DNA of 64,000 nucleotides from a virus. Location: the IMG/VR virus record IMGVR_UViG_3300044858_003398; one strand, written 5' to 3'. The notes beneath the pieces are model-generated. The model was not told the DNA's origin. It did not search any database and worked only from the letters and a program-made list of their open reading frames with translations. The translations under genes were made by a program, and so were the position numbers. Positions 68 through 63,317 of the stretch are shown here, piece after piece (the stretch's first letter is position 1; every line of letters begins with the position of its first letter).

Positions 68-1200
68 ATGAACGCTAAACAATTGAGAGAAATTGTTGAT
101 GAATCACATATCTCTTCTCATAAAGCTTTGAAGCAGTCTATTTGTCGAAGACTTGAGACAGCCGCAGTTAATGGGCACTACGCGATCACTTTCGACCCAA
201 AGTCTTTTGACGGCCCTTTTCTTTTACCGGAAACTGCCAGAAAACAGTTCTTGGATGAGTTGACAAAAGAAGGATTTGAGATAGAATGTGAAACACGATG
301 GTGGAAAAGGAAGACAATCAAGATTTCTTGGGAAAATTCATAAGGGGAAGCTATGACTCTATCAGAACTTGTTCAATCATTGGGTGTAGAAAGATTTAAG
401 GCTCAGCTTATTACTGAACTAAAAATCTTAGCCGAACAAAATCCAGACCATCAGTATGTGACTCACGAACAGCTCGCACTGTCACCCAATCTCCGTCCAA
501 GCTGTTCTTATAACTGTGGTCCTAGATATTGGAATATGGGGGAGTATGCTGCATGTCCTAATTCTACTGAGGAGCAGAACAAAGGCTGCATATTTGGTCG
601 TGCTTTGCGAGCTATGGGGGTCGAGTTGGGCGAACAGCATTCGAATATTGAATATATCCTAAATACTGCCAATGTTGGGAATAGATTTGCTGCGGCTTGC
701 TTAGAGATTCAGGCAGGGCAGGACACTGGATCGAGGTGGGGAGAACTGGACATCTGTTCATTAGACAGATTTGTAGAAATCCCCTCTTGACAGCTAGCGA
801 AGCTAGCATATGATGAAAGAGAGAAGAGATGATGTCTAGGACATACGTAACAACTATAGAGTTAATGAAGCTGTATTGTAAGGCTGAGTATAAATGGGCA
901 GTCTTCTTCTCCGGACTTAACTCTGGCGAGCCATTCCATTCAGACCCAGAAGGATGGGACGCATACATAAAAGAACGCAAGAAAGCTCTTATCTTTTTAG
1001 ATCCATCAGATGATAGCTATATGCAGGTTTTGATGGATGGCGAGGGCTTTTGTATATTTGACTCAGAAGACGAGATGAGATCTTTCTACGATATGATTGT
1101 TGGAGACGATGGTCCCACCAAATCAAATCCATACAATGGACCAATTCGAGTGTATGCACTAACGTGCGGCCCGAATGGGTTGATGAATGAGAACACCTGA
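68..1200 (+). CDS. Three small hypothetical phage proteins (68-343, 353-790, 829-1200)
   Basis: Tandem same-strand ORFs with plausible starts; no recognisable motifs. Confidence 0.7.
787..814 (+). promoter_or_regulatory. Sigma70-type promoter with palindromic spacer
   Basis: TTGACA (787-792), 16 nt spacer containing GCTAGC-GAA-GCTAGC, then TATGAT (809-814); ATG at 829. Confidence 0.75.
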
Positions 1201-1283
1201 TCTGGATACCTCCACTGTTCCACTAAGAGTTCATACGTGTAGACACGTTGGCTGGAATCAATTAGAATGAGACCACTTATCTT

Positions 1284-1356
1284 GCGATAGTAACTCAGTG
1301 GTTAGAGTTCCATTCTTATAAAGTGGCGGTCGAGAGTTCGAATCTCTCCTATCGCA
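1284..1356 (+). tRNA. tRNA-Ile (anticodon UAU)
   Basis: Acceptor GCGATAG/CTATCGC; D-arm ACTC..GAGT; anticodon stem CCATT/AGTGG with loop CTTATAA; T-arm GAGAG-TTCGAAT-CTCTC. Confidence 0.92.
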
Positions 1357-1445
1357 CTTACCAAAAGTAATAACTCGTATTTGCAGCACTATGTGGCAAA
1401 GCCTGATATCGGGCGTAACCATCGAAAGCACCATAGGAAAACGAT

Positions 1446-2692
1446 ATGACCCCACTAACTGTCACCATCTTATACCTAGTTATAATGATGGCTCTAATCT
1501 TTCTATCAGCTATAGTAGCTTCCTTTCAAGAGAAATGGCGAGACAGAGAAAGTCTAGTATTAATTGGATTGACTCTATCTATTATATGGCCTATAGGCTT
1601 GGTAGTAGCAATAGTCCTAGCAATGGTTCACGTTCTGATAAGTTTCACTCACTATCTGCATAATAGGACCATAGAATGAAGCCTGAAGATCAAGAGTGGT
1701 ACTCAAACGCACTAGAGGTACTATCTCCACTTCGATTCCACTTATTCGTACTTATTCAAGACATTGAAAATAAGCAGAGGTGGTCTAAGGCTGCAGGACT
1801 CCCATTCGGAATAGCTGGCTTAGAGGCGGCTAAATCCGCAGCAGGCGATGCAGAATTATTCTTTACTGGCTCCAGAGGAATTTACGAGGCGAAGCCATGA
1901 ACGAACTCGATGAAGTCCCAATGACTGGAACTCCCGACAACGATTATACCTTTGGCGATTATGTCTGCCGATGCCACAGATGTGGAGCCGACTATTATGG
2001 TCCAGATGGATTATTAGTGTGTCACGAGTGCTTTATAGATGTTATGGGCAAACCTGATAGTAACTGTTCACTATGGGTAATGCTATACCTATTTGGTTTA
2101 GGTTTGGCGGTATGGTCGATTTATCAATTAATATAGGAGAGAACATGACTTCGTCTATCAAGCACCTAATAGGTGCCTTACTCGTAATCTTCGGTATTTG
2201 TTTCGGTCTTTATATCGGAATTTGGTGGGGCTTTGTCGGCGGGATTATAGCTACCGTAGAAGCCTTTAAGGCTCCAGAGATTATTGCGTCTGATGTAGCT
2301 GCGGCCCTTGTCCGCATCTTCTTCTGTCAATTCCTCGGGCTCATTGCTGGACTTATCTTTTATCTGCCCGGATATATGCTGTTAGAAAGCAAATGATGGA
2401 ACTCCCCATAGAGGTAGTATTACATGTTCTCAAGCGGGGACTGACCCCAGAAGAGTCTACCAAACTTCTGGTAGACTACAGCGATATTCGAGCAAAATTG
2501 CTTGACAGGGACAGAAAGATCGCTAGAATAAGGAAAACTGCCGCAGAAGATGTTAAGAAGCTAGAGAGCGAAATCCTCTGCGGTCACGAAGTGACCAAGT
2601 ATCATGGCGATCCTTCTGGCGGATCAGATTCGCATGAAGAATGCCTGATCTGTGGAGAGATCGTTCAAGATAAACCATATAGGCGAAGCTAA
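1446..2692 (+). CDS. Run of small hypothetical or membrane proteins (1446-1679, 1676-1900, 1897-2136, 2145-2396, 2393-2692)
   Basis: Overlapping ATGA junctions; hydrophobic segments in 1446-1679 and 2145-2396; CxxC pairs in 1897-2136. Confidence 0.7.
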
Positions 2693-2910
2693 TGAGTGAC
2701 ATAGATATATCTTCGATTGTTTTGTGTGTATGCCCACTCTGCGGGGCGACAGCCAACATTTATGAAGGGTTTGACATTGATTGCGAGTCTAAGACCGCTA
2801 CGATTGAATGCACCAAGTGCCCTATTATGTTTGGCCCTATGTATCCTGACACAAAGCATGATGTAGTGAGGATGATCGAGAGATGGAATAAGCGGAATGG
2901 TGACAATTAA
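2692..2910 (+). CDS. Lar-like (restriction alleviation) zinc-ribbon protein
   Basis: CPLCG...CTKC...ERWNKR pattern typical of Lar-family proteins. Confidence 0.55.
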   Translation: MSDIDISSIVLCVCPLCGATANIYEGFDIDCESKTATIECTKCPIMFGPMYPDTKHDVVRMIERWNKRNGDN

Positions 2911-3063
2911 AGTTTCTGGGAAGTGGGAAATAGTCTGTAAAATAGAACATTTGGTATGGATAGCTATCATACTGGAAGACTCTCCCTCAGTAACAGAGTT
3001 TGAAGTCTGGCAAGCTGGGTGTAGGCTTGATAAGAATAAGGCTGGCTATTGCGGATTCAGTAA

Positions 3064-3504: not shown

Positions 3505-3528
3505 CAGACGACAAAGTCGTCATACAAT
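3501..3528 (+). promoter_or_regulatory. Sigma70-type promoter upstream of the RNA ligase, palindromic spacer
   Basis: TTGACA, 16 nt spacer containing GACGAC-AAA-GTCGTC, then TACAAT. Confidence 0.75.
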
Positions 3529-3570: not shown

Positions 3571-4416
3571 ATGTTTGTTGCATACTCTTCAATTGAAAAT
3601 TCCTACAGAGACAAATTTGTGGCATCAATAAGGGAGGCCGGTCTCGACAAAGTTGAGTGGGTCGCACTTGAGAAAGTTCACGGGTGCAACTTTGGGTTTT
3701 GGCCAATCGACGGAGCCGTAAAGCCTAGCCAGAGAACTCAGTTTACTGATGGCAACTTCTACGGGTCTGGTCCAATAGTGGAAGAGCTAACGCCTAGGGT
3801 GCTTGCTTTGGGTAAGACCGTGTATGGGGAATTGTTTGGGCAGGGCATCCAGAAGGGCGTCAATTACGGTAAAAAGAGATTTGCCGCCTTTGATATCTGG
3901 GATAATGGATTCTTGAACTATGACGACTTCGTCACACTATGTGATAAGTTTGACATAGCAAGGTGTGCCGAGATTGCCAGAGGATCATTTGGTGATCTAC
4001 TCTCTATCGATCCTGCCTTTCCCACCAAGATGAGCGACTGTGGAGCTACCGACATAGCTGAAGGTTTCGTAATGAAGCCTGTAGTTGAAGCCTCTACTGA
4101 GTTTGGTCGGGCAATCCTTAAGAAGAAGTCTGCCAAATTCTTGGAGAAAGCGGTAAAAGAGAAGTCTAACAAGCCGACTCTGTCTGACGAGCAGAATGAG
4201 GTTCTCTCTGTATGCCTCTCTTACCTTTGCCCCAATCGGGTGTCTTCAGCCGTTTCAAAACATGGCGAGAAATTCCCAATCATCTTGAAAGAAGTGGTTG
4301 CGGATATCATCAAAGAGGTTACAATTGACGGAGTTGAAGTGGATAAGCTGGTGATGAACGAGCTTAACTCTGCTACAGCTAAGTGTATTAGAGCAGAACT
4401 ATTCCCTAATCAATAA
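3571..4416 (+). CDS. rnl2: RNA ligase, Rnl2 family
   Basis: Motif I EKVHGCNF, III YGELFG, IIIa FAAFDI, IV AEGFVMKP, V ILKKK. Confidence 0.9.
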   Translation: MFVAYSSIENSYRDKFVASIREAGLDKVEWVALEKVHGCNFGFWPIDGAVKPSQRTQFTDGNFYGSGPIVEELTPRVLALGKTVYGELFGQGIQKGVNYGKKRFAAFDIWDNGFLNYDDFVTLCDKFDIARCAEIARGSFGDLLSIDPAFPTKMSDCGATDIAEGFVMKPVVEASTEFGRAILKKKSAKFLEKAVKEKSNKPTLSDEQNEVLSVCLSYLCPNRVSSAVSKHGEKFPIILKEVVADIIKEVTIDGVEVDKLVMNELNSATAKCIRAELFPNQ

Positions 4417-4426
4417 AGGCAAAGCT

Positions 4427-7397: not shown

Positions 7398-7431
7398 AAG
7401 ATCTAATCGATTTTGAAATAAGGCGAAGCCT

Positions 7432-7905
7432 ATGATCGGGATTTACTCCAAAGACATGACTAGGATTATTGGCTATACTATCAAGCGATATAGGCTCAAT
7501 TTTCCTGATGATATGCTTAGGGAAGATCTTGAGCAGGAAGTAGCCATAGGCCTATTAAAAGTCCCTCATGAGATTACCGCTGGAGACATTATTAGGCACG
7601 TCCTATGGGCAAGAGTACGAATCTGGAAAGACGCTATATCCCGACAACACAACCCGACTGAAGGAAAAGGCTTTTTGCCGTCAGAAGAGTCCATTTACGC
7701 CAAAGAGTCGGTAAAAAAGATAGTGGCAATTGAGAAGCTCACAGAACAAGAAAAAAACTTCCTGAAATGTAGGGCCGAAGGCCTTGACTCTCGGGAGATT
7801 ATGGATAAAATAGGCCTGAAGACGCGACAAAGACTTGAACAGATCAAGAGGGTCGCCTTCAACAAAGTTCGAGAACACTGTGCTGACGCAAAATACTGGA
7901 GTTGA
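7432..7905 (+). CDS. Sigma-70/ECF-like sigma factor or region-4 HTH protein
   Basis: Region-2-like EDLEQEVAIGLLK; region-4-like LTEQEK...GLDSREIMDKIGL.TRQRLEQIKRVAFNKVR. Confidence 0.65.
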   Translation: MIGIYSKDMTRIIGYTIKRYRLNFPDDMLREDLEQEVAIGLLKVPHEITAGDIIRHVLWARVRIWKDAISRQHNPTEGKGFLPSEESIYAKESVKKIVAIEKLTEQEKNFLKCRAEGLDSREIMDKIGLKTRQRLEQIKRVAFNKVREHCADAKYWS

Positions 7906-11574: not shown

Positions 11575-11907
11575 CTTGGCTTCGCAAGAAGCCTAGAACA
11601 CTAGGCGTTAGCTGCATACTCCTATGGGGGGTGTTATTCCGAACAAGTATGGATTAGCTGTCCAGAAAAACTAGGAATGGCCACAAAGGGCAAATAGGTA
11701 GGGCTCTGAGGCTTGCTGGACGAAACGACCTGTTCCTAGTGTTCTTTTTTCGAAACTGCTTCGTAAGAAGCGCAGGTAACGTATAAGGGGGCCAAAGACC
11801 GTGGTTCTCGTGAAATAAACACCCAGAGGGAAACCTAGGCTGGGTGATAAAAACACGACGTAGCTTTTGGATGGCTTACGCCATCTCTGTACTTCTTGCG
11901 AAGCCTT

Positions 11908-12492: not shown

Positions 12493-12757
12493 GCGATCTG
12501 ACGATCCAAAACACAAATGACAAGGGGCGAAGTCATGAGCAGAGAAGATTTCGAGGATACAATCCTCTTTGATAAAATGGGTGAGTACATTGTGAATGAG
12601 ACTCTCGTCTCAGTCCAGTACTTCAGGGATGATCTGAAGGTCGGCTACTACAATGCAATCTCGGGGAATTCGGAAACCTATTCTGGGGTTGAGGTGGCCG
12701 ATCATATCCTAAGGAATCTCACCTTCAGTGAGACTCCTTATTAGGGCGAAGCCAAAC

Positions 12758-13030
12758 GGGCCGTAATTGATTTGAATGGCAATTAAGGCAATAACTGCGG
12801 GTAGGAGTTGGTCAACGGCTCCTTAAAAATTGACCGAACAATAACTGCAAAAACCTTTGCTGTAGCTGCATAAGCTGGAGGGTCTCATGCCCCTCCTTAC
12901 AAAAGCATGAGAGCAACGATACGCAACGTCAGCTTGGCTGACCACACGAACCGGGGGCTTTAGCCCCATACACCCGTAGACGTTATTGATGAGATTGTTC
13001 CATGACGGCATGTCGAAGTGCCACGGTCCA
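12758..13030 (+). ncRNA. ssrA: tmRNA; tag reading frame AKTFAVAA*
   Basis: Acceptor GGGCCGT/ACGGTCC-A with G3-U70; pk1-like GGAGTTGGTCAACGGCTCC..TTGACC; ATAACT then resume codon GCA AAA ACC TTT GCT GTA GCT GCA TAA (12847-12873). Confidence 0.92.
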
Positions 13031-13220
13031 TGAGCCCAATAGGGCTCTGATTTTCAGGCGTGACAGAATAGGCGAGCAAAACCCTTAGACAAGGTGTCGC
13101 AGACTTATTCCGGTGGGGTGTTTTCTTTAGCAGATTCTTGGGACCACGGGCGTTCACTCAAAAGAATCGCCGGTCTGAGTAATCCTACGTCTAATAGGAG
13201 AGCTATCACAGACCGTATCC

Positions 13221-13954: not shown

Positions 13955-14178
13955 CTTCACTACAGAAGCCGATAGGCCTATGCGTGAAGCCCTGATATAC
14001 GGCGATGTTGCAACATCTGTATATCCTTTTACTAGGTTGTGTCAATCTAGTCGGTCTTGCCTAACCGTGCTAGGCACTCAGATTACTTGAGTATGCAGTA
14101 GTCCGCTAAATTCGCCAGCGGTAGTTGGCAAAGGCAGGCTGAACAAGGCTGTCCGGTTGGCTGCAAGGCCAACACTTT

Positions 14179-17195: not shown

Positions 17196-17230
17196 TTTTG
17201 AGACGAAGTCTCCAGTAAAGAGAAAGACCT

Positions 17231-18294: not shown

Positions 18295-18304
18295 GGCAAA
18301 GCCT

Positions 18305-18814
18305 ATGACCTTCCTAGACCTATTTGATTCTCCCTATTCCCCAGCTAACGACGACAAAGTCACTCGTCTAGCTCGTGAGCTTCCCAAGCTGCCAAAGTCC
18401 ATTATCATTGTGGACGTTAGTGGTAGCATGGAATTGCCTAACGGCAATTATTCAAGGTTGCAAATTGCGGCAGCTTTAGCTGCCGAGATCAAGTTGCGGG
18501 CTGACGCACCCCTATATGCCAGTTCAGGCCTTGACTCTGACCAATCCCACATCACCGAGCAACTCAACTATGATGGGTTTAATCTATGGTTGGCCCTAAG
18601 AAGAGCCTGTTATGATTTTGGTGGTGGTGGGATCTTCCTAGAAAAAGCTGTTAAGCATGTCAGCCACTACCATGTCAAGCCTGAAAGGCTTTACATCCTT
18701 ACAGATGAGCAGAACTCCTACCTGCCAACTTTCGGCAAAAGCGTCTTCAATGTTGATGTCGGTTGTCAGTCCTTCGAAGAAACTCGCAGAATGCTAGATT
18801 TGGAGGTCGCATGA
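18305..18814 (+). CDS. Stand-alone VWA domain resembling the C-terminal domain of TROVE/Ro60-like proteins
   Basis: MIDAS motif IIIVDVSGSM, AAALAA helix, GGGIF and LYILTDEQ; no TROVE HEAT-repeat region. Confidence 0.7.
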   Translation: MTFLDLFDSPYSPANDDKVTRLARELPKLPKSIIIVDVSGSMELPNGNYSRLQIAAALAAEIKLRADAPLYASSGLDSDQSHITEQLNYDGFNLWLALRRACYDFGGGGIFLEKAVKHVSHYHVKPERLYILTDEQNSYLPTFGKSVFNVDVGCQSFEETRRMLDLEVA

Positions 18815-23776: not shown

Positions 23777-24277
23777 ATGATTGAGATGAAGATCTCGGAT
23801 ATCGACATGATGAATGCAAAGTCCCGCAGTGACTTGATGGGAGTCCTCGCCAGTTCCCGGACCCAAGGGAAAGGGAATTTGGCAGGATTTGTCGGAGAAG
23901 CCTTGACAGAAAGGCACACCTCTGGTAAGCTTGTGGAAAGCTACGACTACGACATAGAGATTTGTGATCTGAAGATTGATGTCAAGACAAAGTCTTGCTC
24001 CTCAGAGCCGAAGGCTCACTATCTATGTTCGGTCATGAGCTACCAACTCAAGAACGAATGTGACGGGTATATCTTTGCTAGAGTTAACCTAGCATCTGGA
24101 GTCGGCTGGCTCTTGGGGTATATTAGCAAAGTTGACTTGTTAGACAGGGGGTTCTTCGCCAAGAAGGGTTCCCCGGACGGCAGATTTACTTTTACTGAAG
24201 ATTGTTGGAACGTCCAAATTTCAAATTTGGATAACATACCTTTAAGCGAGCAAAGCCATGATTCCACTGATCAATAG
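23777..24277 (+). CDS. PD-(D/E)XK nuclease-like protein
   Basis: G.VGE...YDYDI.....IDVKTK...YIFARV.....WLLGYI. Confidence 0.55.
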   Translation: MIEMKISDIDMMNAKSRSDLMGVLASSRTQGKGNLAGFVGEALTERHTSGKLVESYDYDIEICDLKIDVKTKSCSSEPKAHYLCSVMSYQLKNECDGYIFARVNLASGVGWLLGYISKVDLLDRGFFAKKGSPDGRFTFTEDCWNVQISNLDNIPLSEQSHDSTDQ

Positions 24278-25229
24278 AACCCATTACAGCATCCACCGAG
24301 CCTTCTCAAAGCCTAAGGAAATAGCACAGAAGGCCAAAGCTTTAGGTTATGAGGCCGTAGGCCTCTGTGACTTTGGTAATGTCTCTGCCGCCCTCGAATT
24401 CATTGAGGAGTGTAAGTCAGCCAAGATCAAGCCTATTATCGGGTGTGACTTTGGCGAGACTTACGCCTTCTGCAAGAACCTCCAAGGGTGGAAGGATTTA
24501 TTGTCTGTTGTGAACGAATTCTCTATTCATGCCCGCCTCAATCGGGACACCTTAGCTAATTCACCCCACCTTATTTCTTTTACCGGAAAGCTCCCAGACT
24601 GCCGTTATGTCGAAAAAGAGGATGAAGAGTTCTACCGCATTCTGCGGTGCTTAGGACTTAAGATCAAACTGTCCGAACTAACCGAGATAACCTCTGGTTA
24701 CCATATGGTTTCGCCAAGTGAGATCCCCGAGAATCCAATCTATGAGGCCTTCGACCTCGTAGAGGTCTTCGAAATTGCTGCTCCCCCAAAACTCCCCAAA
24801 TTCTCCGATGGGGAAGTTGAGCTACTCTGGACTAAGGTGCGAGCAGGGCTCACTCAACATACAGAGAACTTCGATCCTATCAAGAAGGCCGAGTATGACG
24901 CTCGTGTACGCTACGAGATGAAGGTTATTGAGTTGGCCAATCTATCTGGCTATTTCCTTATTGTATCAGACTTTGTCAATAAGGGTAGAAGTGATGGACA
25001 ATTATGTAGCATAGGAAGAGGAAGTAGTGCTGGCTGCTTAGTTTCTGACCTTATAGGTATTAATCTAGTTGATCCTATGCCTTATGGGCTCTTGTTCAGT
25101 CGCTTCTTTAACGCAGCGCGAGCTTACCCTAAACACTTAAGTTTTGATGAGTATCCCTTTATTGATGAATTCAGAGACTTCGAAGCTATCTACCTGAAAG
25201 AGTTGGAGACTATTCATGCCAAAGTTTGA
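24258..25229 (+). CDS. dnaE: DNA polymerase III alpha, N-terminal part (degenerate PHP plus start of palm)
   Basis: THYS..., CDFGN, IKPIIG, R.RYEM.VI....YFLIVSDFV, GRGSSAG.LV..LIGI..VDP..YGLLFSRFFN; stops before the PDID motif. Confidence 0.9.
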   Translation: MIPLINRTHYSIHRAFSKPKEIAQKAKALGYEAVGLCDFGNVSAALEFIEECKSAKIKPIIGCDFGETYAFCKNLQGWKDLLSVVNEFSIHARLNRDTLANSPHLISFTGKLPDCRYVEKEDEEFYRILRCLGLKIKLSELTEITSGYHMVSPSEIPENPIYEAFDLVEVFEIAAPPKLPKFSDGEVELLWTKVRAGLTQHTENFDPIKKAEYDARVRYEMKVIELANLSGYFLIVSDFVNKGRSDGQLCSIGRGSSAGCLVSDLIGINLVDPMPYGLLFSRFFNAARAYPKHLSFDEYPFIDEFRDFEAIYLKELETIHAKV

Positions 25230-27061: not shown

Positions 27062-27522
27062 GTAATTACCTCTTTCTTGATGTGGACGGCGTCCTTAATA
27101 ACTTCCTCTCCGAGGACGACTACTTCAACGAGTTCAACATGAGCTGTCTGCGACAGCTCTGTGAGACAATAGATTTTAAAATTGTGCTCAGTTCGGACTG
27201 GAGAAGGCTCCCAAAGAATAAGGCTAGAGTTCGTTCCGAACTCAGGCACGCAGGGCTTGAGTTATACAGTTGTACACCGACCCACACCTTCGGCGGCAAC
27301 CGTAAAGATGAAATCAAAGATTGGCTAAAAGAAGATCCAGAGGTTTGGAATAGTTTTTCTGGTCTAATACTGGATGATATGGGTCCAGACGAGTGCGATC
27401 CGAAATTACCCAACCTTCTCTTTTACCGAACCGATTACAAGCTTGGCCTAACCGAACAGGACGTTGACATTATCTTGGAGAAATTAAATGGGGCTTCGCC
27501 TAGAGGATCATATGACTCCTAA
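27058..27522 (+). CDS. HAD-superfamily phosphatase (RNA-repair-associated type)
   Basis: FLDVDGVLN, IVLSSDWR, R..EI..WL, ILDD, GLT. Confidence 0.85.
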   Translation: MSNYLFLDVDGVLNNFLSEDDYFNEFNMSCLRQLCETIDFKIVLSSDWRRLPKNKARVRSELRHAGLELYSCTPTHTFGGNRKDEIKDWLKEDPEVWNSFSGLILDDMGPDECDPKLPNLLFYRTDYKLGLTEQDVDIILEKLNGASPRGSYDS

Positions 27523-28353: not shown

Positions 28354-29199
28354 GTGTACATCATCGGATCTAGAGCCCTAAACTGCTACGCTTCACGAAG
28401 CGTCGAAGGAAAAGATTGGGACTTCGTCCTAGAGGGCGAAGCCCTCAAACAGTCTCAAGACTGCGATTTAGCTCCGCAGGAGCTTTGTACGCTGGAGGTT
28501 TGTCGAGCCTTCGGTACTGGACTCACCACAGATACACCATATGGGGAAGCTAAGCTTCCTAGCTTAACAGCCCTAATGCTGATTAAGCGGAGCCACCTTC
28601 ATAGACCCCTCGGTTTCGAAAAGAACATCCGAGACTATCATGAGATGAAATCAATCGGCATCTCATATGACAGGCTGAACCATATTGAACGGGCTAAATA
28701 CGACGAACTTCTTAAGAAGCTCACCAAGCAGACTAAGGACCTCTACGGAGATAGGGTCCCATCTCTAAAAAAATCCAAGTCGGAATTCTTCGATGATTAT
28801 GTCACTAAGGTCTTCGACCATGATGAGATTCACGCGGCGACATGCTACGGCGACCATCCCATCTTCGAAAGGCTGAAGCCTTCGGGGGATGAGTCGGTCT
28901 GGTGTTCTAAGTCTTTGTGGGATGGCCTAAGCCACCAAGACAAGATCAGATGTGTAAGAGAAGAAGCGTTCGTAATTGCTCTCGAACGCTTCATAATTCC
29001 GCAGATTATAATTGACAAACCACACAGAAGTGCTAAGATGAGCTTCGGTTTGGCAGTAAGTAAAATTTGTACGACTCTCTGTTCGGGCTGGTTCAGAGAT
29101 TTCGCTATTGAAAACTGGCCTCAGGTTATGGAATACGAATTAGACTTTTTGGAGAAATTTCATGAGCACTTTGATAAACGACTTGCGAAAAGCAATTAA
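28354..29199 (+). CDS. Nucleotidyltransferase-like phage protein
   Basis: IIGSRA....DWDFV (GS plus DxD, Pol-beta superfamily); FDHDEIH and EEAFVIALER. Confidence 0.6.
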   Translation: MYIIGSRALNCYASRSVEGKDWDFVLEGEALKQSQDCDLAPQELCTLEVCRAFGTGLTTDTPYGEAKLPSLTALMLIKRSHLHRPLGFEKNIRDYHEMKSIGISYDRLNHIERAKYDELLKKLTKQTKDLYGDRVPSLKKSKSEFFDDYVTKVFDHDEIHAATCYGDHPIFERLKPSGDESVWCSKSLWDGLSHQDKIRCVREEAFVIALERFIIPQIIIDKPHRSAKMSFGLAVSKICTTLCSGWFRDFAIENWPQVMEYELDFLEKFHEHFDKRLAKSN

Positions 29200-33205: not shown

Positions 33206-33223
33206 TAGAAAGGCGAAGCCCTC

Positions 33224-35432: not shown

Positions 35433-35442
35433 GGCGAAGCCA

Positions 35443-38169
35443 ATGACCGGACTCTCCCCAGAACAAATTACCTCCCTAGAACGCCACCTAGAAATAGAAG
35501 ATGGTGGAGCCATTTCCTTTTTACTGGAAGAAGAGTCGCTTCGCGACTCGCTACCTGACGGTAAGGCCTATTATGAGCACATCATAAGTTCTGTAGAGTT
35601 AGACCGCTCCAATCCTAAGAACTCCTACATCATGTACATAGCAGGCAAGGTTGATAGAATAGACATGTCAAAGCCATGCCTATTCACGAAGGCATCAACC
35701 GCCCTGCCTGATATTGACGTAGACTTTCCTACGGATTATCGTGAGAAAGCTATCGACTACGTCAGGACTAAGTATGGGGCAGACAAAGTCTGCCAGATTA
35801 CGACCTTCGGTCGGCTATCGGGACGCTCAGCAGTTAAGGCTGTCATGCGAGTCGAGGGCGGATACGACTTTGAGACGATGAATATCGTTACTGAAGGAAT
35901 CCCCGATGAAGCCGCCATCTCCGATCAATTAGAGGAGACTGGCGAAGACAGTATCCTCTCATGGATGCTCCATAATGATGGGGATAAGATTGCCGATTAT
36001 TGTCGTCTTGAGGATGGTATCTTAGTCGGCGACTACGCCGACATCTTCCGTAAGGCTATCGCTCTAGAGGGAACCTTCCAGAATCAGGGCAAACACGCAG
36101 CAGGCGTTATCATTTCCTCTGAGGAAGTGGCCAAAGTTAGCCCAATGTGCCTCGCCAAAGATGGCTCGGCGATAGCCGCCTTTGACATGGCATGGCTGGA
36201 GAAGGCCGGTCTTGTTAAGTTCGACTTTCTCGGGGTAGATATTCTCAATAAGATTCAGGAGGCATGGGGTCCCGACATAGTAAATGTCCCTTTTACTGAT
36301 GAAGAAGCATGGGACGTTATCTGTGGTGGGAATACTAAGGGGTGTTTCCAGATTGAGAACCATCTAGGGAGAGACTGGTCTAAGGAAATCCGCCCACGCA
36401 ATATCGAAGAGCTTTCTGCTGTAATTTCCGTGATCCGCCCCGGCAGCTTGATGGCTCGGGATGAGTCTGGCAGATCCATGACTAAAGTTTATGCCGACAG
36501 GAAGAACGGGTTGGAGCCCGTTGAGGATAACCCAATCAATCGAGTAATTGATACTTATGGTGTCCTCGTATATCAGGAGACACTACAGATCATAGCAAAG
36601 ATCTTGGCTGGATTCAATTGTGCAGATGGTATCAAGCTGATGAAATCGGTCGGTAAAAAAGATGCCAAACTTCTCTTTTCTCTTGAAGATAAGTTCCTGT
36701 CGGGATGTCTTAAGACTGGTACTATACCTAAAGATGATGCAGTTAAATTATTCACTAACATTAAATCTAGTGCCCGCTACCTTTTTAATAAATCTATTTC
36801 TAGTGAATCAATAACTAAATGTCGCGATGGATCTACAAAGACCATAGCACAAATTCAGGCTGGCGACGAGGTGATGACCCCAACAGGCTTCGCGAAAGTA
36901 ATAGCTAAATACGATCATGGGGTTATGGATACTTATTCAGCCACATTCTCAAATGGATCGAATGTTCGGTGTAGTATTAATCACAAGTTCTTATGTGAGA
37001 ATGGTGATATCCTACCCCTTGGACAAATACTTTATGAAGGAAGGCGAGTAATTGCTGAATCAGAAACAGTAGAAATAATATACTTGGACTATGTGGGGAA
37101 AGAGAATCTTTGGGACATAGAGATAGATTCTGAGGATCATATTTACTTCGCCAACGGAGTTGCCACAAGTAACTCCCATGGAGTTTCGTACTCATACCCA
37201 TGCTACTGGTCGGCATATATCAAGGCCCACAAACCACTAAAGTTCTATGAGGTATGGTTAAAATATTCGTCTCATAAGTTAGATCCTCATGCTGAGGTTC
37301 GTAACCTAGTACTTTCGGCGAAGCTTGACAACATTGAGATCCTCCCGCCCTCGTGTGAATACCTAACCGAGGGTTTCTTCATTAAAGACAACTCCGTTGT
37401 CTTCGGATTGTCACATATCAAAGGTGTAGCTAATCGCGAATTAGAGAAGCTATTCGCATTAATGAGGACGCACGGAGTCCGTGCGTCTCTCGTTACTTAC
37501 TTGACTGAGATTCTCCCCCATATCAACAAGAGAACCTGTGAAGCACTGATTAACTGTGGCTGCTTCCATTATCTCGGAGTATCCCGTGCAGCTTTGCTGC
37601 ACTATTACGAGTGCTTCTCAGACCTCTCCGACAAGGAGCTGGTCTTCTTTCAGGACAAGTCCTTCAAGACGCCAGCAGAAGCCTTGGAAGCGGCTTGTCT
37701 GCTTAAGAAGGAAGGCGGGGCTTGTGCCACCAAAGGAAGAGTTGAAAAGCTCAAAATAATACTTGAACGTCTGACAAATCCGGGTAGAATCTTACATGAC
37801 CTGCCGGGGAAGATCGCTGCGTCCGAAGAGGCTGCAATTGGTACGACTTTGTCGTGCAGCTATATGGATGCTTGCTTAGCGGCAGGCGTAGCAGATACTA
37901 CATGTAAAGAAATCATGAGGGGCAAGCCGGGCAAGAGGACTATCGTTGTCAGAATCACAGAAGTTAAGGAACACATAATCAAGTCGTCAGACAAGAAGAT
38001 GGCATTTCTGACCGTATCTGATGACACGGCAGAGATCGATAATGTGGTCTGCTTTGCTGACCAGTATGAGCAGTTTGGCAGATTTATGTTCGATGGGGCG
38101 ATGGTCGCCATCTATGGGGAACTCGGTAAAAAGAAAAGTTTCGTAATTGATCGCTGCACAGAATTATAA
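35443..38169 (+). CDS. dnaE: DNA polymerase III alpha, C-terminal part (catalytic palm, fingers, HhH, OB), intein-containing
   Basis: LPDIDVDF, YG.DKVCQI.TFG, GKHAAGVII, GLVKFDFLG, G.FQIE, RPG, YGVLVYQE, FNK|SH, FGLSHIKGV, KKMAFLTVSD. Confidence 0.93.
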   Translation: MTGLSPEQITSLERHLEIEDGGAISFLLEEESLRDSLPDGKAYYEHIISSVELDRSNPKNSYIMYIAGKVDRIDMSKPCLFTKASTALPDIDVDFPTDYREKAIDYVRTKYGADKVCQITTFGRLSGRSAVKAVMRVEGGYDFETMNIVTEGIPDEAAISDQLEETGEDSILSWMLHNDGDKIADYCRLEDGILVGDYADIFRKAIALEGTFQNQGKHAAGVIISSEEVAKVSPMCLAKDGSAIAAFDMAWLEKAGLVKFDFLGVDILNKIQEAWGPDIVNVPFTDEEAWDVICGGNTKGCFQIENHLGRDWSKEIRPRNIEELSAVISVIRPGSLMARDESGRSMTKVYADRKNGLEPVEDNPINRVIDTYGVLVYQETLQIIAKILAGFNCADGIKLMKSVGKKDAKLLFSLEDKFLSGCLKTGTIPKDDAVKLFTNIKSSARYLFNKSISSESITKCRDGSTKTIAQIQAGDEVMTPTGFAKVIAKYDHGVMDTYSATFSNGSNVRCSINHKFLCENGDILPLGQILYEGRRVIAESETVEIIYLDYVGKENLWDIEIDSEDHIYFANGVATSNSHGVSYSYPCYWSAYIKAHKPLKFYEVWLKYSSHKLDPHAEVRNLVLSAKLDNIEILPPSCEYLTEGFFIKDNSVVFGLSHIKGVANRELEKLFALMRTHGVRASLVTYLTEILPHINKRTCEALINCGCFHYLGVSRAALLHYYECFSDLSDKELVFFQDKSFKTPAEALEAACLLKKEGGACATKGRVEKLKIILERLTNPGRILHDLPGKIAASEEAAIGTTLSCSYMDACLAAGVADTTCKEIMRGKPGKRTIVVRITEVKEHIIKSSDKKMAFLTVSDDTAEIDNVVCFADQYEQFGRFMFDGAMVAIYGELGKKKSFVIDRCTEL
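36793..37173 (+). mobile_element. Mini-intein (127 aa, no endonuclease domain) in DnaE
   Basis: Interrupts the conserved YLFNK|SHGVSY; starts SISSES; block B CSINHKF; block F WDIEID..HIYFANG; ends ATSN with +1 Ser. Confidence 0.88.
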
Positions 38170-38358
38170 AGGAGCTTTAGTCATGACAATCTCTAAGATC
38201 TTAATCATCATTGGGGTTCTAGGCGAATGCTGGGTCTGGCTCGCCTTCTTCAAGACGCGAGTCCCCCAACGCTTCCTCTCGAAGGTCTCCTTCGTGTCTG
38301 GTTCTGCTGTTTTATTCGGTCTCGTCGGCTATTTAGCTGACCTTTACTAGGCTTCGCC

Positions 38359-41585: not shown

Positions 41586-42508
41586 CAGTAATTTTTACAA
41601 AGTGGCCGATCTTCTTCACTAAGCGTCTTATAGAGATCCATCATCTCTTTGATACCATATTCTAAAGATCGTGTACACCTGTACCCTAGATTGTATAATT
41701 TTTGACTACTGACCTCGTAATCTCTTTTATCTGGGTCAGTCCTGTCATCTACTATAGACCAAGTAGCCCCAGTCACTGCACATATCTTTTTTACCAGTTC
41801 TTCCTTGGTCATATTGATTGAATCATTGCCGAGGTTGTAAATTTCGCCAGCCATATCTCCAATGCGAGACAGCGGCATCTCAAGAGCTGAAACAATATCA
41901 TCAATATGAATGTAGTTTCTACGGAAATGCCCATCAAATACTTCAATATGAGATTTCCCAGCCAAATTATTGACCAGTAAATCTAATCTAGGCCTCAAAG
42001 ACGCCCCGAATACGGTGGCCAATCTGAAACAAACAGATCTGCGATAGGAGTGAATGTGGGCTTCGCCTTCCATCTTGGTCTTGGCATAAAGAGATAGAGG
42101 GTTCATGGGAGTTTCTTCAGTACAAACCCCCGGATTGCTCCCATATGCAGAATTTGAATTACAGTAAACCACTATCTGATTGGTTAGGTGATTAACCAGA
42201 TGGTTCTGCCATTCTGAGTTTAGAAGTCGCGTAATGTCGGGGTCCTGATCGCACAAAGGAGCACCAACTAAAGCGGCTAATGGGTAGACCGCGTCGGCCC
42301 TGTCAATACAATCCTTGAGGTTGCTTGACCAAAAGAGGACATCTTCATTGAAGAAGTGGCACTTCGGGTGCTTGAACAACTGGCTGACGAATTTCTCTTG
42401 CTTGAAGAAGAAATTATCAAAGCAGTATAGCTCATGCCCATAGTTGAGCAATCGTTCTGTCAATTTTGAGCCAATATAGCCTGCGGCTCCAGTAACAACA
42501 ATCTTCAT
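41585..42508 (-). CDS. NAD-dependent epimerase/dehydratase
   Basis: VTGAAGYIGS, YAKTK, RLATVFG.S.R.R.DLLVN. Confidence 0.92.
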   Translation of the reverse strand: MKIVVTGAAGYIGSKLTERLLNYGHELYCFDNFFFKQEKFVSQLFKHPKCHFFNEDVLFWSSNLKDCIDRADAVYPLAALVGAPLCDQDPDITRLLNSEWQNHLVNHLTNQIVVYCNSNSAYGSNPGVCTEETPMNPLSLYAKTKMEGEAHIHSYRRSVCFRLATVFGASLRPRLDLLVNNLAGKSHIEVFDGHFRRNYIHIDDIVSALEMPLSRIGDMAGEIYNLGNDSINMTKEELVKKICAVTGATWSIVDDRTDPDKRDYEVSSQKLYNLGYRCTRSLEYGIKEMMDLYKTLSEEDRPLCKNY

Positions 42509-46858: not shown

Positions 46859-48343
46859 TTAATCCTTTAGTAGCTTACGCTTCAACTTAATCTTTGTCAT
46901 TTCTTTGATATTGCTCACAGCTACTTCGCCATAAGCCTCGCCCATTCTCTTTAGTACTGATTCATTCGTGAAATACCGATGGAAGAAATCATCCCTGAAC
47001 CTAAGAACATCTGATGCGGACAGGTACTTAGTGCAATCCGGCACATGATTATAGCTCAGGAAGCCAAATTCAGAGTACTCTTCTGGAACTCTTCTGCCCT
47101 CATTCTTAGCCTGAAGATATAGCGGACTCCCCGGAAGTGCGGTAGCACAGTAAATGTTCATATTGGCGAGAGGTAGATCTACTGCAAGTTGATATGACTC
47201 CTCCATTGAATCGAAATCGTCGGTTGGAAGACCAACTATGAAATTTCCGCCAACCCCAATCCCGTGATCATCTATGCTCTTCACGATATCTCTGATATTA
47301 ACTTCCTTAAATCTCCCCTTATCAATCTCCTGCCTTACCGTCTGCGAAGCAGACTCAATTCCTAGAGCTAGATGATTAACACCAGCCTTCTTCAAAGTCT
47401 CAAGGTATTGAGGCTTCGCCGTATCTACTCGACTATAGGCCCAGATATTAAACTTTAAACCTCTCTCTATGATTAACTCACATAGAGTCATGAAATGCTT
47501 GGGGCGGTATACAAACATTTCGTCAGCAATTTTGAGATTGGTCACACCTTGGCTAGACAAATATTCTAGCTGCTTTATTGTGTATTCTGGGGACCAGTAG
47601 CGAAAAATATTGAATGAGTCTGCCGTCTTAGTAAAATCTATTGATGTTCTATTAATAGAATTAATCATGCAGAAACTACACTTGCTATAACAACCTAAGC
47701 TAGTATAAATACTAGCGAATGGGCTTGTGTTACCTTTAAAGTTGGTGTGCCAAGTACTTGTTCTATAATTATCTAGAGATGGCATCAGATCATACGCCAC
47801 TCCGGGCATATCAAATTCCATCAGGTTCTGAGGAACGATCCCCTCAGCCATATTCATCTTGATGGCGTCGTCGCGATACACAATTCCTTTTACAGAACTA
47901 AGAGCCTCAATAGAAGTACCACGCTCAACTATATTCCTGAGGGCATAAACCCCCTCATTCATAAAGGTGATATCTATAAAATCATGCTTCTGCAATACTT
48001 CGATAGGAAGAGCGTTGACGTGCGGACCAATGAATGCTATCTTACAAAGTCCCCTAATACACTCTGCCGCTTTGGTCGCCCCATGCATCGCAGAGGAGGA
48101 AGCATTTGGATTGCTACCAGTAGCCACGAAGAGGACCAAGTCTGGCGAGATACTTTCAACATCAGAGTAAAATTCAGCAGCAGTAGGTCTATTAACTTCC
48201 ATATCGTATATGGATACATCGCATTTACTCCTAACAGAATTAGCTAAAAGACCGGCCCATAGATTAGGCTCTTTAGCGGAGAGGTCCTTGCTTAAATCCT
48301 GATACAAATCAGCAGAACTAGGAGCGACAATTAATAGCTTCAT
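46859..48343 (-). CDS. Cobalamin-binding (class B) radical SAM enzyme
   Basis: N-terminal B12-binding domain (IGPH, NEG); SLGCYSKCSFC (CxxxCxxC); DEMF, LGIES, FIVGLP.D, LPGSPLY. Confidence 0.9.
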   Translation of the reverse strand: MKLLIVAPSSADLYQDLSKDLSAKEPNLWAGLLANSVRSKCDVSIYDMEVNRPTAAEFYSDVESISPDLVLFVATGSNPNASSSAMHGATKAAECIRGLCKIAFIGPHVNALPIEVLQKHDFIDITFMNEGVYALRNIVERGTSIEALSSVKGIVYRDDAIKMNMAEGIVPQNLMEFDMPGVAYDLMPSLDNYRTSTWHTNFKGNTSPFASIYTSLGCYSKCSFCMINSINRTSIDFTKTADSFNIFRYWSPEYTIKQLEYLSSQGVTNLKIADEMFVYRPKHFMTLCELIIERGLKFNIWAYSRVDTAKPQYLETLKKAGVNHLALGIESASQTVRQEIDKGRFKEVNIRDIVKSIDDHGIGVGGNFIVGLPTDDFDSMEESYQLAVDLPLANMNIYCATALPGSPLYLQAKNEGRRVPEEYSEFGFLSYNHVPDCTKYLSASDVLRFRDDFFHRYFTNESVLKRMGEAYGEVAVSNIKEMTKIKLKRKLLKD

Positions 48344-58115: not shown

Positions 58116-58127
58116 TCAAAACTGACT

Positions 58128-58152: not shown

Positions 58153-58175
58153 ACTCTTCTATAAAGGCTTAAGCC

Positions 58176-60007: not shown

Positions 60008-60016
60008 GAGATAGAG

Positions 60017-60646: not shown

Positions 60647-60820
60647 GTACTACGTATTCTCGTATTAGTTATCGTAGATGGCAACTTAATGGATCGTCTT
60701 TTCCTAGCCGAGATCAACTAGTACAACACCTACAATCACAACATGGAATATCTAGCTTAGACGATTTGTCATATGAAGAACTATTAGCAATTCACGACGA
60801 TGATCACAATGGAGTATACA

Positions 60821-61884: not shown

Positions 61885-61897
61885 GTCTGAAAGACTC

Positions 61898-61940
61898 CTT
61901 GACATTTTGACCTCCGAAGATTATAATCCTCGGAGGTCTT
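61898..61940 (+). promoter_or_regulatory. Consensus sigma70 promoter whose -10 box lies inside an inverted repeat
   Basis: TTGACA-17-TATAAT; GACCTCCGA...TCGGAGGTC flanks the -10. Confidence 0.78.
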
Positions 61941-61975
61941 TTCGTTGACTCACATACGTTCGTCGGAGCACAGCC

Positions 61976-62662
61976 TTGAATCACGTTGATGGTATTGTGG
62001 CCTTCATGCAGAAGGCCGGTCAGGCAACCCCAGAGAAGTTGACGGTTCCTTCGGAACAGGACCGAATCCTTCGGGCCAAGCTCATCCTTGAAGAGGCCTT
62101 TGAGCTTATTAACGATGGGCTCGGGATCGGCGTAGCTAACTTTGGCCATTTTTTAAAGCCAGCGGATTTCAATTATGTGATTACTGGAGAGGCTGATGCA
62201 GTAGACGCCCTTGATGGAGCCGCCGACTTGTTTTGGACAGGTGTGGGCGGTGTAGCCATCATCTTTGGAGCTGATCTAGAACCAGTCCTAGATGAAGTTG
62301 ACCGAAGTAACCAGTCTAAGTTCATAGATGGATATAGGGGTCAAGACGGAAAATGGCAAAAAGGTCCCTCGTACAGTCAGGCTAATATTGAGTGTGCTCT
62401 TCGGGATCGTGTTCGTCCTATCGGCGAAGACTATTACGCTTTCCAGCATGATTGTAACGATAATGCTTGGTGGGTAGTTCTACAGGACTACTGGCACTAT
62501 AATCATTGCGTTGATGATTGCCAATTAGGGATCGATATTCCCGGATTCATAGAGTCCATGGAGTCGTGTTTCTATCCAGTAGACGACCGTGTAAACTCAA
62601 TCGAAGCTGAAAACATGCTGAAAGCTTTGGGCTTTACTATTTTGGATGATGAAGATGCTTAG
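61976..62662 (+). CDS. MazG-like NTP pyrophosphohydrolase with an additional C-terminal domain
   Basis: LRAKLILEEAFEL, DALDGAADL, DEVDRSNQSK, DGKWQKGPSY. Confidence 0.82.
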   Translation: MNHVDGIVAFMQKAGQATPEKLTVPSEQDRILRAKLILEEAFELINDGLGIGVANFGHFLKPADFNYVITGEADAVDALDGAADLFWTGVGGVAIIFGADLEPVLDEVDRSNQSKFIDGYRGQDGKWQKGPSYSQANIECALRDRVRPIGEDYYAFQHDCNDNAWWVVLQDYWHYNHCVDDCQLGIDIPGFIESMESCFYPVDDRVNSIEAENMLKALGFTILDDEDA

Positions 62663-63317
62663 GATAATCGGGGATGTCCATGGGAAGTTCAGCAACTATC
62701 TGCAAATAGCAGAAGTGGCAGAGCATAGCCTCCAGATTGGGGACTTCGGCTTAAGTAGTAGCTGGAACAATCTAACATATTCCGGCCTACATCCGGACAA
62801 TCATAAAGTGCTTGCCGGGAATCATGAGGATTATGACTTCGCTCCGAAATCCCCTTTCTACCTTGGTGATTTCGGCGAAGCCACCATCGGTGGCGTAGCC
62901 ATCTTTTTCATGAGAGGTGGTATTTCCATAGATCGAACCTACCGAGAAGCTGAACGTATCAATAGGGGACCTAGGAGTTGGTGGTCCCAAGAGGAACTGA
63001 GCTTCGCTCAAATGATCGAATGTATGAAGGCCTATCGTAGGGCGAAGCCCTCCATTGTTGTATCACATGTGCCTGCGGCAAGTTTCGCTTCGGTTATGTC
63101 CCCAGACGATAAAATCTTAGTAGATTTTGGCTTCCATAAAGGCTTCAAAGAAGCCACCCAGCTACTCGGGGATGAACTGCTTAAAATTCATCGACCAAAG
63201 GTTTGGCTGTCCGCTCACTTTCATAAGTCCTTTCAGGACGAAATTGGCGGTACAAGGTTTGTAGGCCTTGCTGAGTTAGAGTATGTAGACATTGATTCGA
63301 ACGGAGAAATAGTATGA
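62646..63317 (+). CDS. Calcineurin-like metallophosphoesterase
   Basis: IGDVHG, QIGDFG, GNHE, VSH.P, AHFH. Confidence 0.9.
   Translation: MMKMLRIIGDVHGKFSNYLQIAEVAEHSLQIGDFGLSSSWNNLTYSGLHPDNHKVLAGNHEDYDFAPKSPFYLGDFGEATIGGVAIFFMRGGISIDRTYREAERINRGPRSWWSQEELSFAQMIECMKAYRRAKPSIVVSHVPAASFASVMSPDDKILVDFGFHKGFKEATQLLGDELLKIHRPKVWLSAHFHKSFQDEIGGTRFVGLAELEYVDIDSNGEIV

Follow-up and report, generated by a model that had tools for sequence, protein, structure and literature searches.

A nine-base word, GGCGAAGCC, recurs directly before start codons in an uncultivated large lake phage, and its distribution suggests a lineage-specific, start-associated signal that acts at the mRNA level, a variant of the kind of start-associated sequence (SAS) found in cluster K mycobacteriophages, with a putative reader; we hold this overall reading with intermediate confidence. 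The analyzed DNA (the window) is a stretch of 64,000 nucleotides, bases 2382 to 66381 of the linear, 123,595-bp IMG/VR virus record IMGVR_UViG_3300044858_003398, which is estimated to be 79% complete. This record is referred to as G0, and G1 to G5, L158, and similar labels denote related metagenomic virus records. The reading is carried by the enrichment of the word, its strand bias, its abutment of ATG, its Shine-Dalgarno (SD)-like pairing, its interchange with other start regions at orthologous genes, and its restriction to one clade, all of them direct observations; from these we infer that the word acts in RNA and that a reader exists.

Abundance, strand, and position of the word

Exact GGCGAAGCC is present in 15 copies in the window, against a mean of 0.26 and a maximum of 2 in dinucleotide shuffles, so the recurrence pointed out in the initial annotation is a true enrichment over background. 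Copies number 18 in all of G0 (123.6 kb), 19 in G1 (139.9 kb), and 12 in G2 (25.4 kb, early region). Rival words are scarce: other GGC-NNN-GCC loops and other N3-GAA-N3' stems reach at most 5 copies per strand versus 13 for GGCGAAGCC, and the neighbor words GGAGAAGCC, GGCGAAGCT, and GGCAAAGCC also stay at or below 5 each per strand, the exact word being several times commoner. Because other loops and stems are this rare, the start-abutting class appears to be sequence specific, and a generic hairpin family was dropped as its explanation.

Judged by local gene direction, 13 of the 15 window copies lie on the sense strand, as do 16 of 18 in G0 and 44 of 49 over G0, G1, and G2 (44 sense to 5 antisense; binomial P ~8e-9), with copies in the minus-strand operons included among the sense ones. 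The initial annotation had stressed that the word occurs in both orientations. Antisense copies do exist, at 27492 and 38350, but the statement was too strong, and the DNA-level signal deduced from it does not follow when 44 of 49 copies are on the coding strand.

Position is equally biased. Among the 49 copies, 19 are start abutting, that is, followed within 0 to 3 nt by an ATG that opens an open reading frame (ORF) of at least 55 codons; the background is 2.1% (P ~2e-19). Thirteen of them touch the ATG (0 nt), five stand 1 nt away, and one stands 3 nt away; the start codon is ATG at all 19, compared with 71% ATG among all gene calls. About 20 of the 49 copies are interior to genes, and two word sites precede stable-RNA genes. 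Sense bias together with ATG abutment is the signature of an mRNA or translation-level signal.

Start-abutting copies are also present in G3 and G4, whose capsid proteins are 84 to 88% identical to that of G0. In L158 (86% DnaE identity), 22.7 kb of sequence contain three copies; one precedes the ATG of the gene for the N-terminal part of DnaE, and another precedes a TTG. In relatives with DnaE identity of 70% or less, or capsid identity of about 50%, no start-abutting GGCGAAGCC was found, only stray interior copies, and no substitute word stood out among them. Because these distant relatives carry only strays, the start-abutting use of the word appears to be young and limited to a clade of approximately genus rank. 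When viral contigs were scanned for GAGGCGAAGCCATG, the matches listed were mostly single chance matches in GC-rich contigs, and the literature searched held no report of GGCGAAGCC as a phage repeat.

Copies and variants in the window are as follows (exact copies first).

1888-1896, + strand: GGCGAAGCC abutting ATG 1897 (79-aa ORF), within the 3' end of ORF 1676-1900
7422-7430, + strand: GGCGAAGCC, 1 nt before ATG 7432 (157-aa protein with a weak sigma-factor region-4-like match)
12745-12753, + strand: GGCGAAGCC directly past the stop of ORF 12517-12744, 4 nt before a tmRNA-like gene
28435-28443, + strand: GGCGAAGCC, interior, sense, in the Gly-Glu-Ala frame of gene 28354-29199; kept in G2
29958-29966, + strand: GGCGAAGCC abutting ATG 29967, 2 nt past the upstream stop; kept in G1 (with 1-nt spacing) and G2
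30431-30439, + strand: GGCGAAGCC abutting ATG 30440, inside an upstream gene ending EAKPCTT-stop; kept in G1 and G2
31826-31834, + strand: GGCGAAGCC abutting ATG 31835; the upstream ORF, 31395-31838, ends EAKP-stop
33212-33220, + strand: GGCGAAGCC, 3 nt before ATG 33224
35433-35441, + strand: GGCGAAGCC directly past a TAA stop, 1 nt before the ATG of the large DnaE fragment
62874-62882, + strand: GGCGAAGCC, interior, sense, Gly-Glu-Ala frame of a metallophosphatase gene; G3 has the synonymous GGAGAAGCC
63041-63049, + strand: GGCGAAGCC, interior, sense, Ala-Lys-Pro frame of the metallophosphatase gene; kept in G3; the stem reaches 5 bp
27492-27500, - strand: antisense GGCGAAGCC in or beside the start region of gene 27488/27512-28123
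38350-38358, - strand: antisense GGCGAAGCC; the + strand reads GGCTTCGCC and abuts ATG 38359 (DUF4419 protein)
42059-42067, - strand: GGCGAAGCC, interior, sense, Gly-Glu-Ala frame of a minus-strand epimerase gene
47412-47420, - strand: GGCGAAGCC, interior, sense, Ala-Lys-Pro frame of a minus-strand radical SAM gene
2682-2690, + strand: variant GGCGAAGCT, 1 nt before ATG 2692 (Lar-like restriction alleviation protein)
4418-4426, + strand: variant GGCAAAGCT abutting ATG 4427 (ATP-dependent DNA ligase)
18295-18303, + strand: variant GGCAAAGCC directly past a TAG stop, 1 nt before ATG 18305
58166-58175, + strand: variant GGCTTAAGCC abutting ATG 58176
16804, 34029, and 34286: variant GGCTACGCC
11897-11905, + strand: TGCGAAGCC, a match at 8 of 9 positions, ending 1 nt before the 5' end of tRNA-Gln (11907)
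17200-17212, + strand: GAGAC-GAA-GTCTC (GAGACGAAGTCTC), a C-GAA-G hairpin with a different, 5-bp stem, 3 nt past tRNA-Arg
12758-13033, + strand: tmRNA-like gene, matching the full Rfam model RF00023 below threshold

All coordinates that the initial annotation had given for word sites before starts are correct (0 nt from the start at 1888, 29958, 30431, and 31826; 1 nt at 7422 and 35433; 3 nt at 33212), and every variant that it had listed is where it was said to be. Its list lacked the copies at 28435, 42059, 47412, 62874, and 63041, all of them interior to genes. Several sites differ among relatives. The G1 orthologue of the gene starting at 7432 has GGCGAAGCT in place of GGCGAAGCC, homology to G2 ends at the ATG of the 30431 site, and homology to G1 breaks within the word at 31826. 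The 27492 copy, which lies just past ATG 27488 and 11 nt before ATG 27512, is not kept in G2, which has GGCTACCGCC. The flanks of the 28435 copy lengthen its stem to 6 bp (GAGGGC-GAA-GCCCTC).

The structural gene block has a single copy of the word, at positions 110563-110571 of the G0 record (positions 4182-4190, minus strand, of the stretch of it labeled L139). It is preceded by AGGAGG, lies after the putative major capsid gene, and is kept in G1 and G5 at 98.5%. An ORF is open in frame from an ATC/ATA 1 nt past the word and reaches the called TTG start 35 nt downstream, so this copy may mark a noncanonical start.

Start context and structure

An A stands before 16 of the 19 start-abutting copies, so that the 5' edge reads GAGG or AAGG. 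Mean SD:anti-SD pairing is -5.5 kcal/mol at motif starts, -4.1 kcal/mol at other called starts, and -2.2 kcal/mol for random 17-mers, calculated with a generic anti-SD that may not be the host's. The last seven bases, CGAAGCC, are invariant and take no part in anti-SD pairing, and a position matrix of 374 called starts shows G from -11 through -8 and A at -5/-4, with GCC absent from -3 to -1. The last of these rules out a general ribosome-binding-site consensus as the identity of GGCGAAGCC, and the initial view that the word is not a plain ribosome-binding site is borne out. (Genes were called by a simple codon-score method, giving 179 to 181 genes over 90% of the record, with approximate start positions.)

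In many cases the word begins right at the upstream stop codon (TAA-GGCG, TAG-GGCG); in the others, it lies within the last codons of the upstream gene. Because it is written into these codons, proteins come to end in EAKP, and translation confirmed the EAKP ends reported initially: ORFs 1676-1900 and 31395-31838 end in EAKP followed by a stop, and one ORF ends in EAKPCTT and a stop.

Orthologous genes differ in what precedes them. A small membrane-protein gene starts with AAGGAG...ATG in G0, GGCGAAGCC-ATG in G1, and GACGAAGCC-ATG in G2; the gene for the N-terminal part of DnaE has GAGCAAAGCC in G0, GGCAAAACC in G1, and GGCGAAGCC in L158; and G0 and G2 have the word at the large DnaE gene, where the start region of G1 is unrelated. 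Judging from these alignments, the word and ordinary start regions appear interchangeable at orthologous genes. One-mismatch variants lie next to starts in 14% of cases, versus 40% for the exact word and a background of ~5%.

Other signals around the word are few. No shared sequence was seen upstream of the copies, and promoter-like sigma-70 sites were not enriched in the 24- to 40-kb region. A weak sigma-70-like promoter ~30 nt upstream of the large-DnaE copy would make the word part of a leader and not a 5' end. The word is not followed by a run of T's (the next bases are usually ATG), and an intrinsic terminator was rejected for want of a following U tract.

Two adjacent small genes of G1 (72 and 67 aa) share an identical 30-nt upstream cassette (79031-79072 and 79303-79344, numbered in the orientation of the window), composed of a 13-bp box in sense orientation, 11 nt, and then GGCGAAGCC-ATG. 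The core of the extended box, (c)TTCTCTTTTAC[C/T]G (C[A/G]GTAAAAGAGAA on the other strand), is matched 73 times in the 123.6 kb of the record (for example, at window positions 221, 8762, 34298, and 57445), about equally on the two strands and mostly within genes; the intergenic cases of the box lie 10 to 20 nt before starts. It is found in G1 to G4 and not in G6 and G7.

As for structure, every GGCGAAGCC copy contains the GCGAAGC core, with a closing C-G pair and a GNA loop, as the initial annotation had said of an extra-stable mini-hairpin. The stem around the GAA loop is 3 bp in most copies and reaches 4 to 6 bp in a few. When mini-hairpins were counted as stems of 3 bp with at least 2 G-C pairs and loops of 3 or 4 nt, 21 had a 3' arm ending exactly at a start codon, versus ~5 per neighboring offset, and 10 of the 21 are not the exact word. 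Stem-compensated forms are found among the start-abutting variants (GACGAAGTC, GCCGAAGGC, AGCGAAGCT, and GACGTAGTC), and at the gene with the inverted copy at 38350, the G2 orthologue has a sense-strand C-GTA-G hairpin (GAGC-GTA-GCTC) instead. Counting against structure, starts are also occupied by uncompensated variants, among them GACGAAGCC and GGAGAAGCC. Single variants of the G-T type and of the A-C type are about equally numerous next to starts, so that wobble asymmetry favors neither RNA nor DNA. As DNA, the hairpin has a stability of -0.6 kcal/mol by nearest-neighbor parameters, which carry no special loop bonus. The evidence for structure versus sequence is mixed.

We propose that GGCGAAGCC would serve as a directional cassette of nine bases, taking up most or all of the interval from one stop codon to the following ATG or else lying within the last codons of the upstream gene. 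About one in five of the small genes for early functions and replication would use it, within a single narrow clade of large, uncultivated phages from lakes. The preceding purine and the first GG (GAGG or AAGG) would pair with the anti-SD of 16S rRNA at the usual distance, and the remainder, CGAAGCC, may close a three-pair hairpin over the GAA loop, set against the AUG. Because bases unable to pair with rRNA are invariant, a second reader is proposed, either a phage or host RNA-binding factor or a local fold, which would set the timing or strength of translation. Because the same word sits at many junctions, it may travel with, or be replaced with, whole gene junctions in module swaps, as a consequence and not the purpose of the cassette.

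Mini-hairpin excess, stable-RNA genes, and gene content

Mini-hairpins of the same class are overrepresented throughout these genomes. Extra-stable DNA mini-hairpins have a C-G closing pair and a GNA or GNNA loop (PMC13037366, PMC3201870). The excess concerns G0 and its relatives G1 and L158 to L163. Further complementary flanks were found for 18.9% of C-GNA-G cores with GAA, 16.5% with GTA, 13.5% with GGA, and 12.0% with GCA, which puts these four close to the top of all triloop cores whose closing pair is complementary (7.2% overall). With GGCGAAGCC excluded, 14.2% of C-GNA-G cores in G0 and G1 have two further complementary pairs, against 6.8% in unrelated viral contigs (1.09 Mb), and the corresponding values for C-GNNA-G are 11.9% and 7.3%. 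In the same flank test, gGNAc, aGNAt, and cTTCGg were not raised. The closing-pair and loop rules of the excess are thus those of stable DNA mini-hairpins.

Inside genes, 115 sense and 99 antisense hairpins compare with 57 and 47 under synonymous shuffling (z ~7 to 8), the number of cores being unchanged. The excess is therefore about twofold, is found in either orientation with stems of at least 3 bp of any sequence, and resides in synonymous codon choice. It is densest in the early region of G0 and amounts to 16.6% in relatives with 60 to 70% DnaE identity, which are without the start-abutting word. Interior hairpins are identical between G0 and G1 in 43% of cases versus 37% for nonhairpin cores. 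These results point to one of two origins, a DNA signal without fixed position or a mutational bias by which the replication machinery perfects palindromes. They lend indirect support to the initial idea of a DNA-level signal for the hairpin class and none for the oriented, start-abutting word. As far as we searched the literature, the twofold excess has not been described.

The gene at 12758-13033 matches the full RF00023 model with 38.6 bits, against a gathering score of 47 (E value, 5.5e-13; 7.6e-14 on a shorter stretch); ARAGORN made no tmRNA call there. The tag frame as read from the alignment is AKTFAVAA-stop, a terminator-like hairpin lies 3' of the gene, and the gene is kept in G1 and G2. 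By its sequence, its identity as a tmRNA is plausible. G1 and G2 have an inverted copy of the word with a 5-bp stem 8 nt before tRNA-Arg, G2 has a 5-bp-stem copy 9 nt past tRNA-Gly, and hairpins with GAA or GTA loops flank further tRNAs. The tRNA island has several structured elements; one, the hairpin GTTGGC...GCCAAC at ~14150-14175 before tRNA-Thr in G0, has a counterpart in G1 and G2, GTTGGT...ACCAAC, with a compensated C-G to T-A pair, a few nucleotides upstream of tRNA-Trp.

G0 has a gene set of large lytic phages (rIIA, rIIB, a DnaB-like helicase, a UvsX-like recombinase, and ribonucleotide reductase), a sugar-modification operon on the minus strand, and five tRNAs. Gene direction and GC skew switch together, which makes the polarities of replication and transcription inseparable. 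No cultured relative was found by DNA in the phage collection, and by protein there were distant DnaE matches only. A PHROG search gave no match for the structural proteins of G0, the 1,964-aa and 1,261-aa proteins had no Pfam match, and an attempt to infer the host through the DegT-like gene in bacterial genomes gave no result. Searches with DnaE and the major capsid protein as queries retrieved related IMG/VR records, and a further protein search retrieved many metagenomic relatives that share the synteny rIIA-rIIB, split DnaE with small genes between its parts, and then the glycan operon.

The DnaE-type polymerase is encoded in two genes on the + strand, a PHP/N-terminal part at 24258-25229 and the remainder at 35443-38169, separated in G0 by ~10 kb with some 20 small genes. 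The split is kept in relatives down to ~60% identity, and a relative with 49% identity has an unsplit protein of 1,132 aa. Some relatives have intein or homing-endonuclease domains inside the DnaE gene. Two genes that follow the word or a variant have weak matches of regulatory type: the word-preceded gene 7432-7905 (+) to RNA polymerase sigma factor region 4 (E value, 3e-6) and the variant-preceded gene 18305-18814 (+; 169 aa) to the PHROG category RNA-binding protein (E value, 9e-6). Sigma-factor domains are encoded in relatives, where clear Sigma70_r4 or r2 proteins lie at places matching these two genes.

Competing explanations and known elements

The known element that GGCGAAGCC most resembles is the SAS of cluster K mycobacteriophages, 5'-GGGATAGGAGCCC, described in 2011 (Pope et al., PMC3203893; surveyed in PMC12699233), for which no function or reader has been shown in any case (PMC3203893, PMC12699233). 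Both are short, asymmetric words with 11 to 19 copies per genome, almost all in one orientation. Both have copies a few bases before start codons (19 of 49 for GGCGAAGCC), with a strong preference for ATG, in nonstructural genes only and in genes of unrelated families, with rare copies in ORFs or in the opposite orientation. Each combines an SD-like core with conserved bases unable to pair with 16S rRNA and has self-complementary outer bases, GGG...CCC in SAS and GGC...GCC in GGCGAAGCC. The differences are nevertheless substantial. Sequence, lineage, and host are unrelated (here an uncultivated lake phage with split DnaE and rIIA/B). GGCGAAGCC has 9 nt versus 13 and stands 0 to 1 nt from ATG versus 3 to 7 nt; it lies in minimal gaps or in the upstream ORF, with forced EAKP ends, whereas SAS genes follow gaps of >50 bp. 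The extended-SAS inverted repeats that frequently accompany SAS were not seen at GGCGAAGCC, which in turn also precedes tmRNA and tRNA genes, has overrepresented interior copies, and sits in a C-GNA-G mini-hairpin background. By this comparison, GGCGAAGCC would be the same kind of element as SAS and not of the same family by descent.

Several observations weigh against an SAS-like signal read in mRNA. The hairpin is worth only -1.3 kcal/mol as RNA by nearest-neighbor folding, start regions fold no better than shuffles (z near 0), and mini-hairpins are reported to be far less stable as RNA than as DNA (PMC13037366). Among candidate readers, RegA (PF01818), RegB (PF10715), CsrA (PF02599), and bS21 (PF01165) were not found in the record; the anti-SD pairing was calculated with a generic sequence, from which the host's may differ; and the start-abutting copy at 38350 is in the opposite orientation. 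The word 4 nt before the tmRNA-like gene is kept in G0, G1, and G2 while the preceding 12 nt vary, and the 8/9 copy TGCGAAGCC lies 1 nt before tRNA-Gln; neither RNA is translated from its word site. Interior sense copies number 7 in G0 and 7 in G1, versus ~1.2 and ~1.0 under a synonymous-codon shuffle, a 5- to 6-fold excess that none of 300 shuffles matched (0/300 reached 7). Most of them are GGC-GAA-GCC coding for Gly-Glu-Ala, and this frame alone has 5 and 6 copies versus 1.35 and 0.7 in a codon-pair model. None of the interior copies has a start codon after it; conservation is seen for some, and synonymous change has removed others. Because the tmRNA, tRNA-Gln, and interior copies fit a translation signal badly, explanations at the level of RNA 5' ends, DNA, or mutation stay in contention.

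One of these is a DNA-level signal, in which extra-stable d(GCGAAGC) on single-stranded DNA would be read by a primase, a polymerase, or a factor that excludes single-stranded DNA-binding protein (SSB), with GGCGAAGCC as the commonest member. The family excess of C-GNA-G and C-GNNA-G hairpins speaks for it, in that it follows the DNA mini-hairpin rules, is present in either orientation, and extends to distant relatives; the phage encodes DnaB and a DnaE-type polymerase, and mini-hairpins are known at primase and N4 virion RNA polymerase (vRNAP) sites. We nevertheless consider it unlikely, as a word found 90% on the coding strand and locked 0 to 1 nt from ATG is unexpected for a replication or nucleoid signal. 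Start-adjacent non-GGC C-GAA-G hairpins amount to only 1 of 108, interior hairpins are barely better conserved than nonhairpin cores, and the joint flip of gene direction and GC skew leaves no way to separate the polarities. A more elaborate version, which we regard as a long shot, would make the hairpins a dispersed, position-free genomic signal, about one per kilobase and densest early (e.g., SSB-excluding priming or loading sites for a DnaB and split-DnaE replisome), from which GGCGAAGCC was co-opted in one subclade as a strand-specific start cassette, the same structure acting in DNA and mRNA. If, instead, the word were a mutational by-product without dedicated function, template switching, for example, might perfect quasipalindromes at C-GNA-G nuclei, and an acceptable SD-plus-spacer word might spread by junction replacement. 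The excess is indeed family specific, orientation independent, and stem diverse, with near-neutral site turnover; word presence at orthologous starts changes fast, and interior copies are lost through synonymous change. Mutational bias acts on both strands, however, whereas the word is 44:5 in favor of the sense strand; no other GGC-loop-GCC or N3-GAA-N3' hairpin comes near the exact word in number, and the pre-tmRNA copy is conserved while its upstream flank drifts, all of which makes such an origin very unlikely in our estimation.

A signal defining RNA 5' ends, either a hairpin cut just 3' by an endoribonuclease or a minimal promoter element, would yield leaderless or near-leaderless mRNAs. 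It would account for the presence of the word 0 to 4 nt before three kinds of units, protein starts, the tmRNA-like gene, and tRNA-Gln, and it suits the strand bias and the GAA- and GTA-loop hairpins beside other tRNAs. Leaderless translation requires ATG, and ATG follows all 19 start-abutting copies. On a leaderless RNA, however, the preceding purine and pairing of SD strength would be needless. Many copies lie within the upstream ORF of tightly coupled genes, interior copies would cleave their own mRNAs, and tRNA and tmRNA 5' ends are normally RNase P products. Nine bases are very short for a promoter, the upstream sequences have no common features, and no candidate nuclease was identified; we judge this explanation quite unlikely. 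Last, the word might be a recombination linker, providing microhomology for the exchange of small modules between coinfecting relatives. At many junctions, homology among G0, G1, and G2 has its limit only a few bases from the word (7422, 31826, 35433, and 38350 in G0; 95295, 104721, and 116202 in G1), two neighboring G1 genes have the identical 30-nt cassette ending in the word, and a UvsX-like recombinase is encoded. The suggestion in the initial annotation that breakpoints map to the motif is right insofar as they often fall exactly there, but they do so no more than at other junctions: breakpoints no more than 15 nt from the start are seen at 6 of 12 informative motif junctions and at 47 of 133 others (odds ratio, 1.8; Fisher P = 0.36; small sample). 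A recombination hotspot at the word was rejected on this ground, and gene boundaries in general act as breakpoints in these mosaic genomes. Nine bases are a very short homology, and the strand bias, the ATG-only rule, and the SD context would be left unexplained; a linker role is highly improbable.

Extra-stable mini-hairpins d(GCGNAGC)/d(GCGNNAGC) are found at G4-type primase origins, RSF1010 ssiA, and N4 vRNAP promoters (PMC13037366). GGCGAAGCC contains GCGAAGC, and the family excess obeys the rules of a C-G pair and a GNA or GNNA loop. The known sites, however, are single origins or a few promoters with 5- to 8-bp stems, read on single-stranded DNA, whereas here dozens of copies with 3-bp stems are strand locked to transcription and fused to ATG. 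The N4-type polymerase promoter raised in the initial annotation was rejected: stems are mostly 3 bp versus 5 to 7 bp, and contact with ATG leaves no room for promoter geometry. No match to PF00940 (T7/N4-like RNA polymerase) was found in the 79%-complete record, although the control genomes also gave none, and this counts against a DNA signal in the same measure.

The stoperators of cluster A mycobacteriophages (L5 gp71 sites) are repressor-bound DNA sites of temperate phages (PMC3203893). They, too, are short, asymmetric sites that occur many times in a genome, share one orientation with respect to transcription, and lie at gene junctions and across start or stop codons, but their distance to the start is not fixed. 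The fixed 0- to 1-nt distance of GGCGAAGCC and the lytic-type genes of a phage that looks lytic led us to reject this class, although no search was aimed at a repressor or integrase. Arbiol et al. (2010) reportedly described promoter-early stem-loop (PeSL) cassettes in T4-type phages. Like GGCGAAGCC, these are short repeated elements between small early genes, at boundaries of module shuffling. A PeSL, however, is an early promoter plus a terminator-like stem-loop in a real intergenic gap, whereas GGCGAAGCC is without a promoter consensus, has a 3-bp stem, and is often inside the upstream ORF.

If GGCGAAGCC is indeed an SAS-like signal, it would be an independent and much shorter example of the type, fused to ATG in an unrelated lineage, and hence a simple test system for such elements. 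Natural controls are at hand in orthologues with and without the word, compensated and uncompensated stem variants, and one inverted copy. In the EAKP C termini forced on unrelated proteins, a nucleotide signal overrides protein coding. The mini-hairpin excess, if selected, would be a new kind of dispersed genomic signal; if mutational, it would be a visible footprint of the phage replication machinery.

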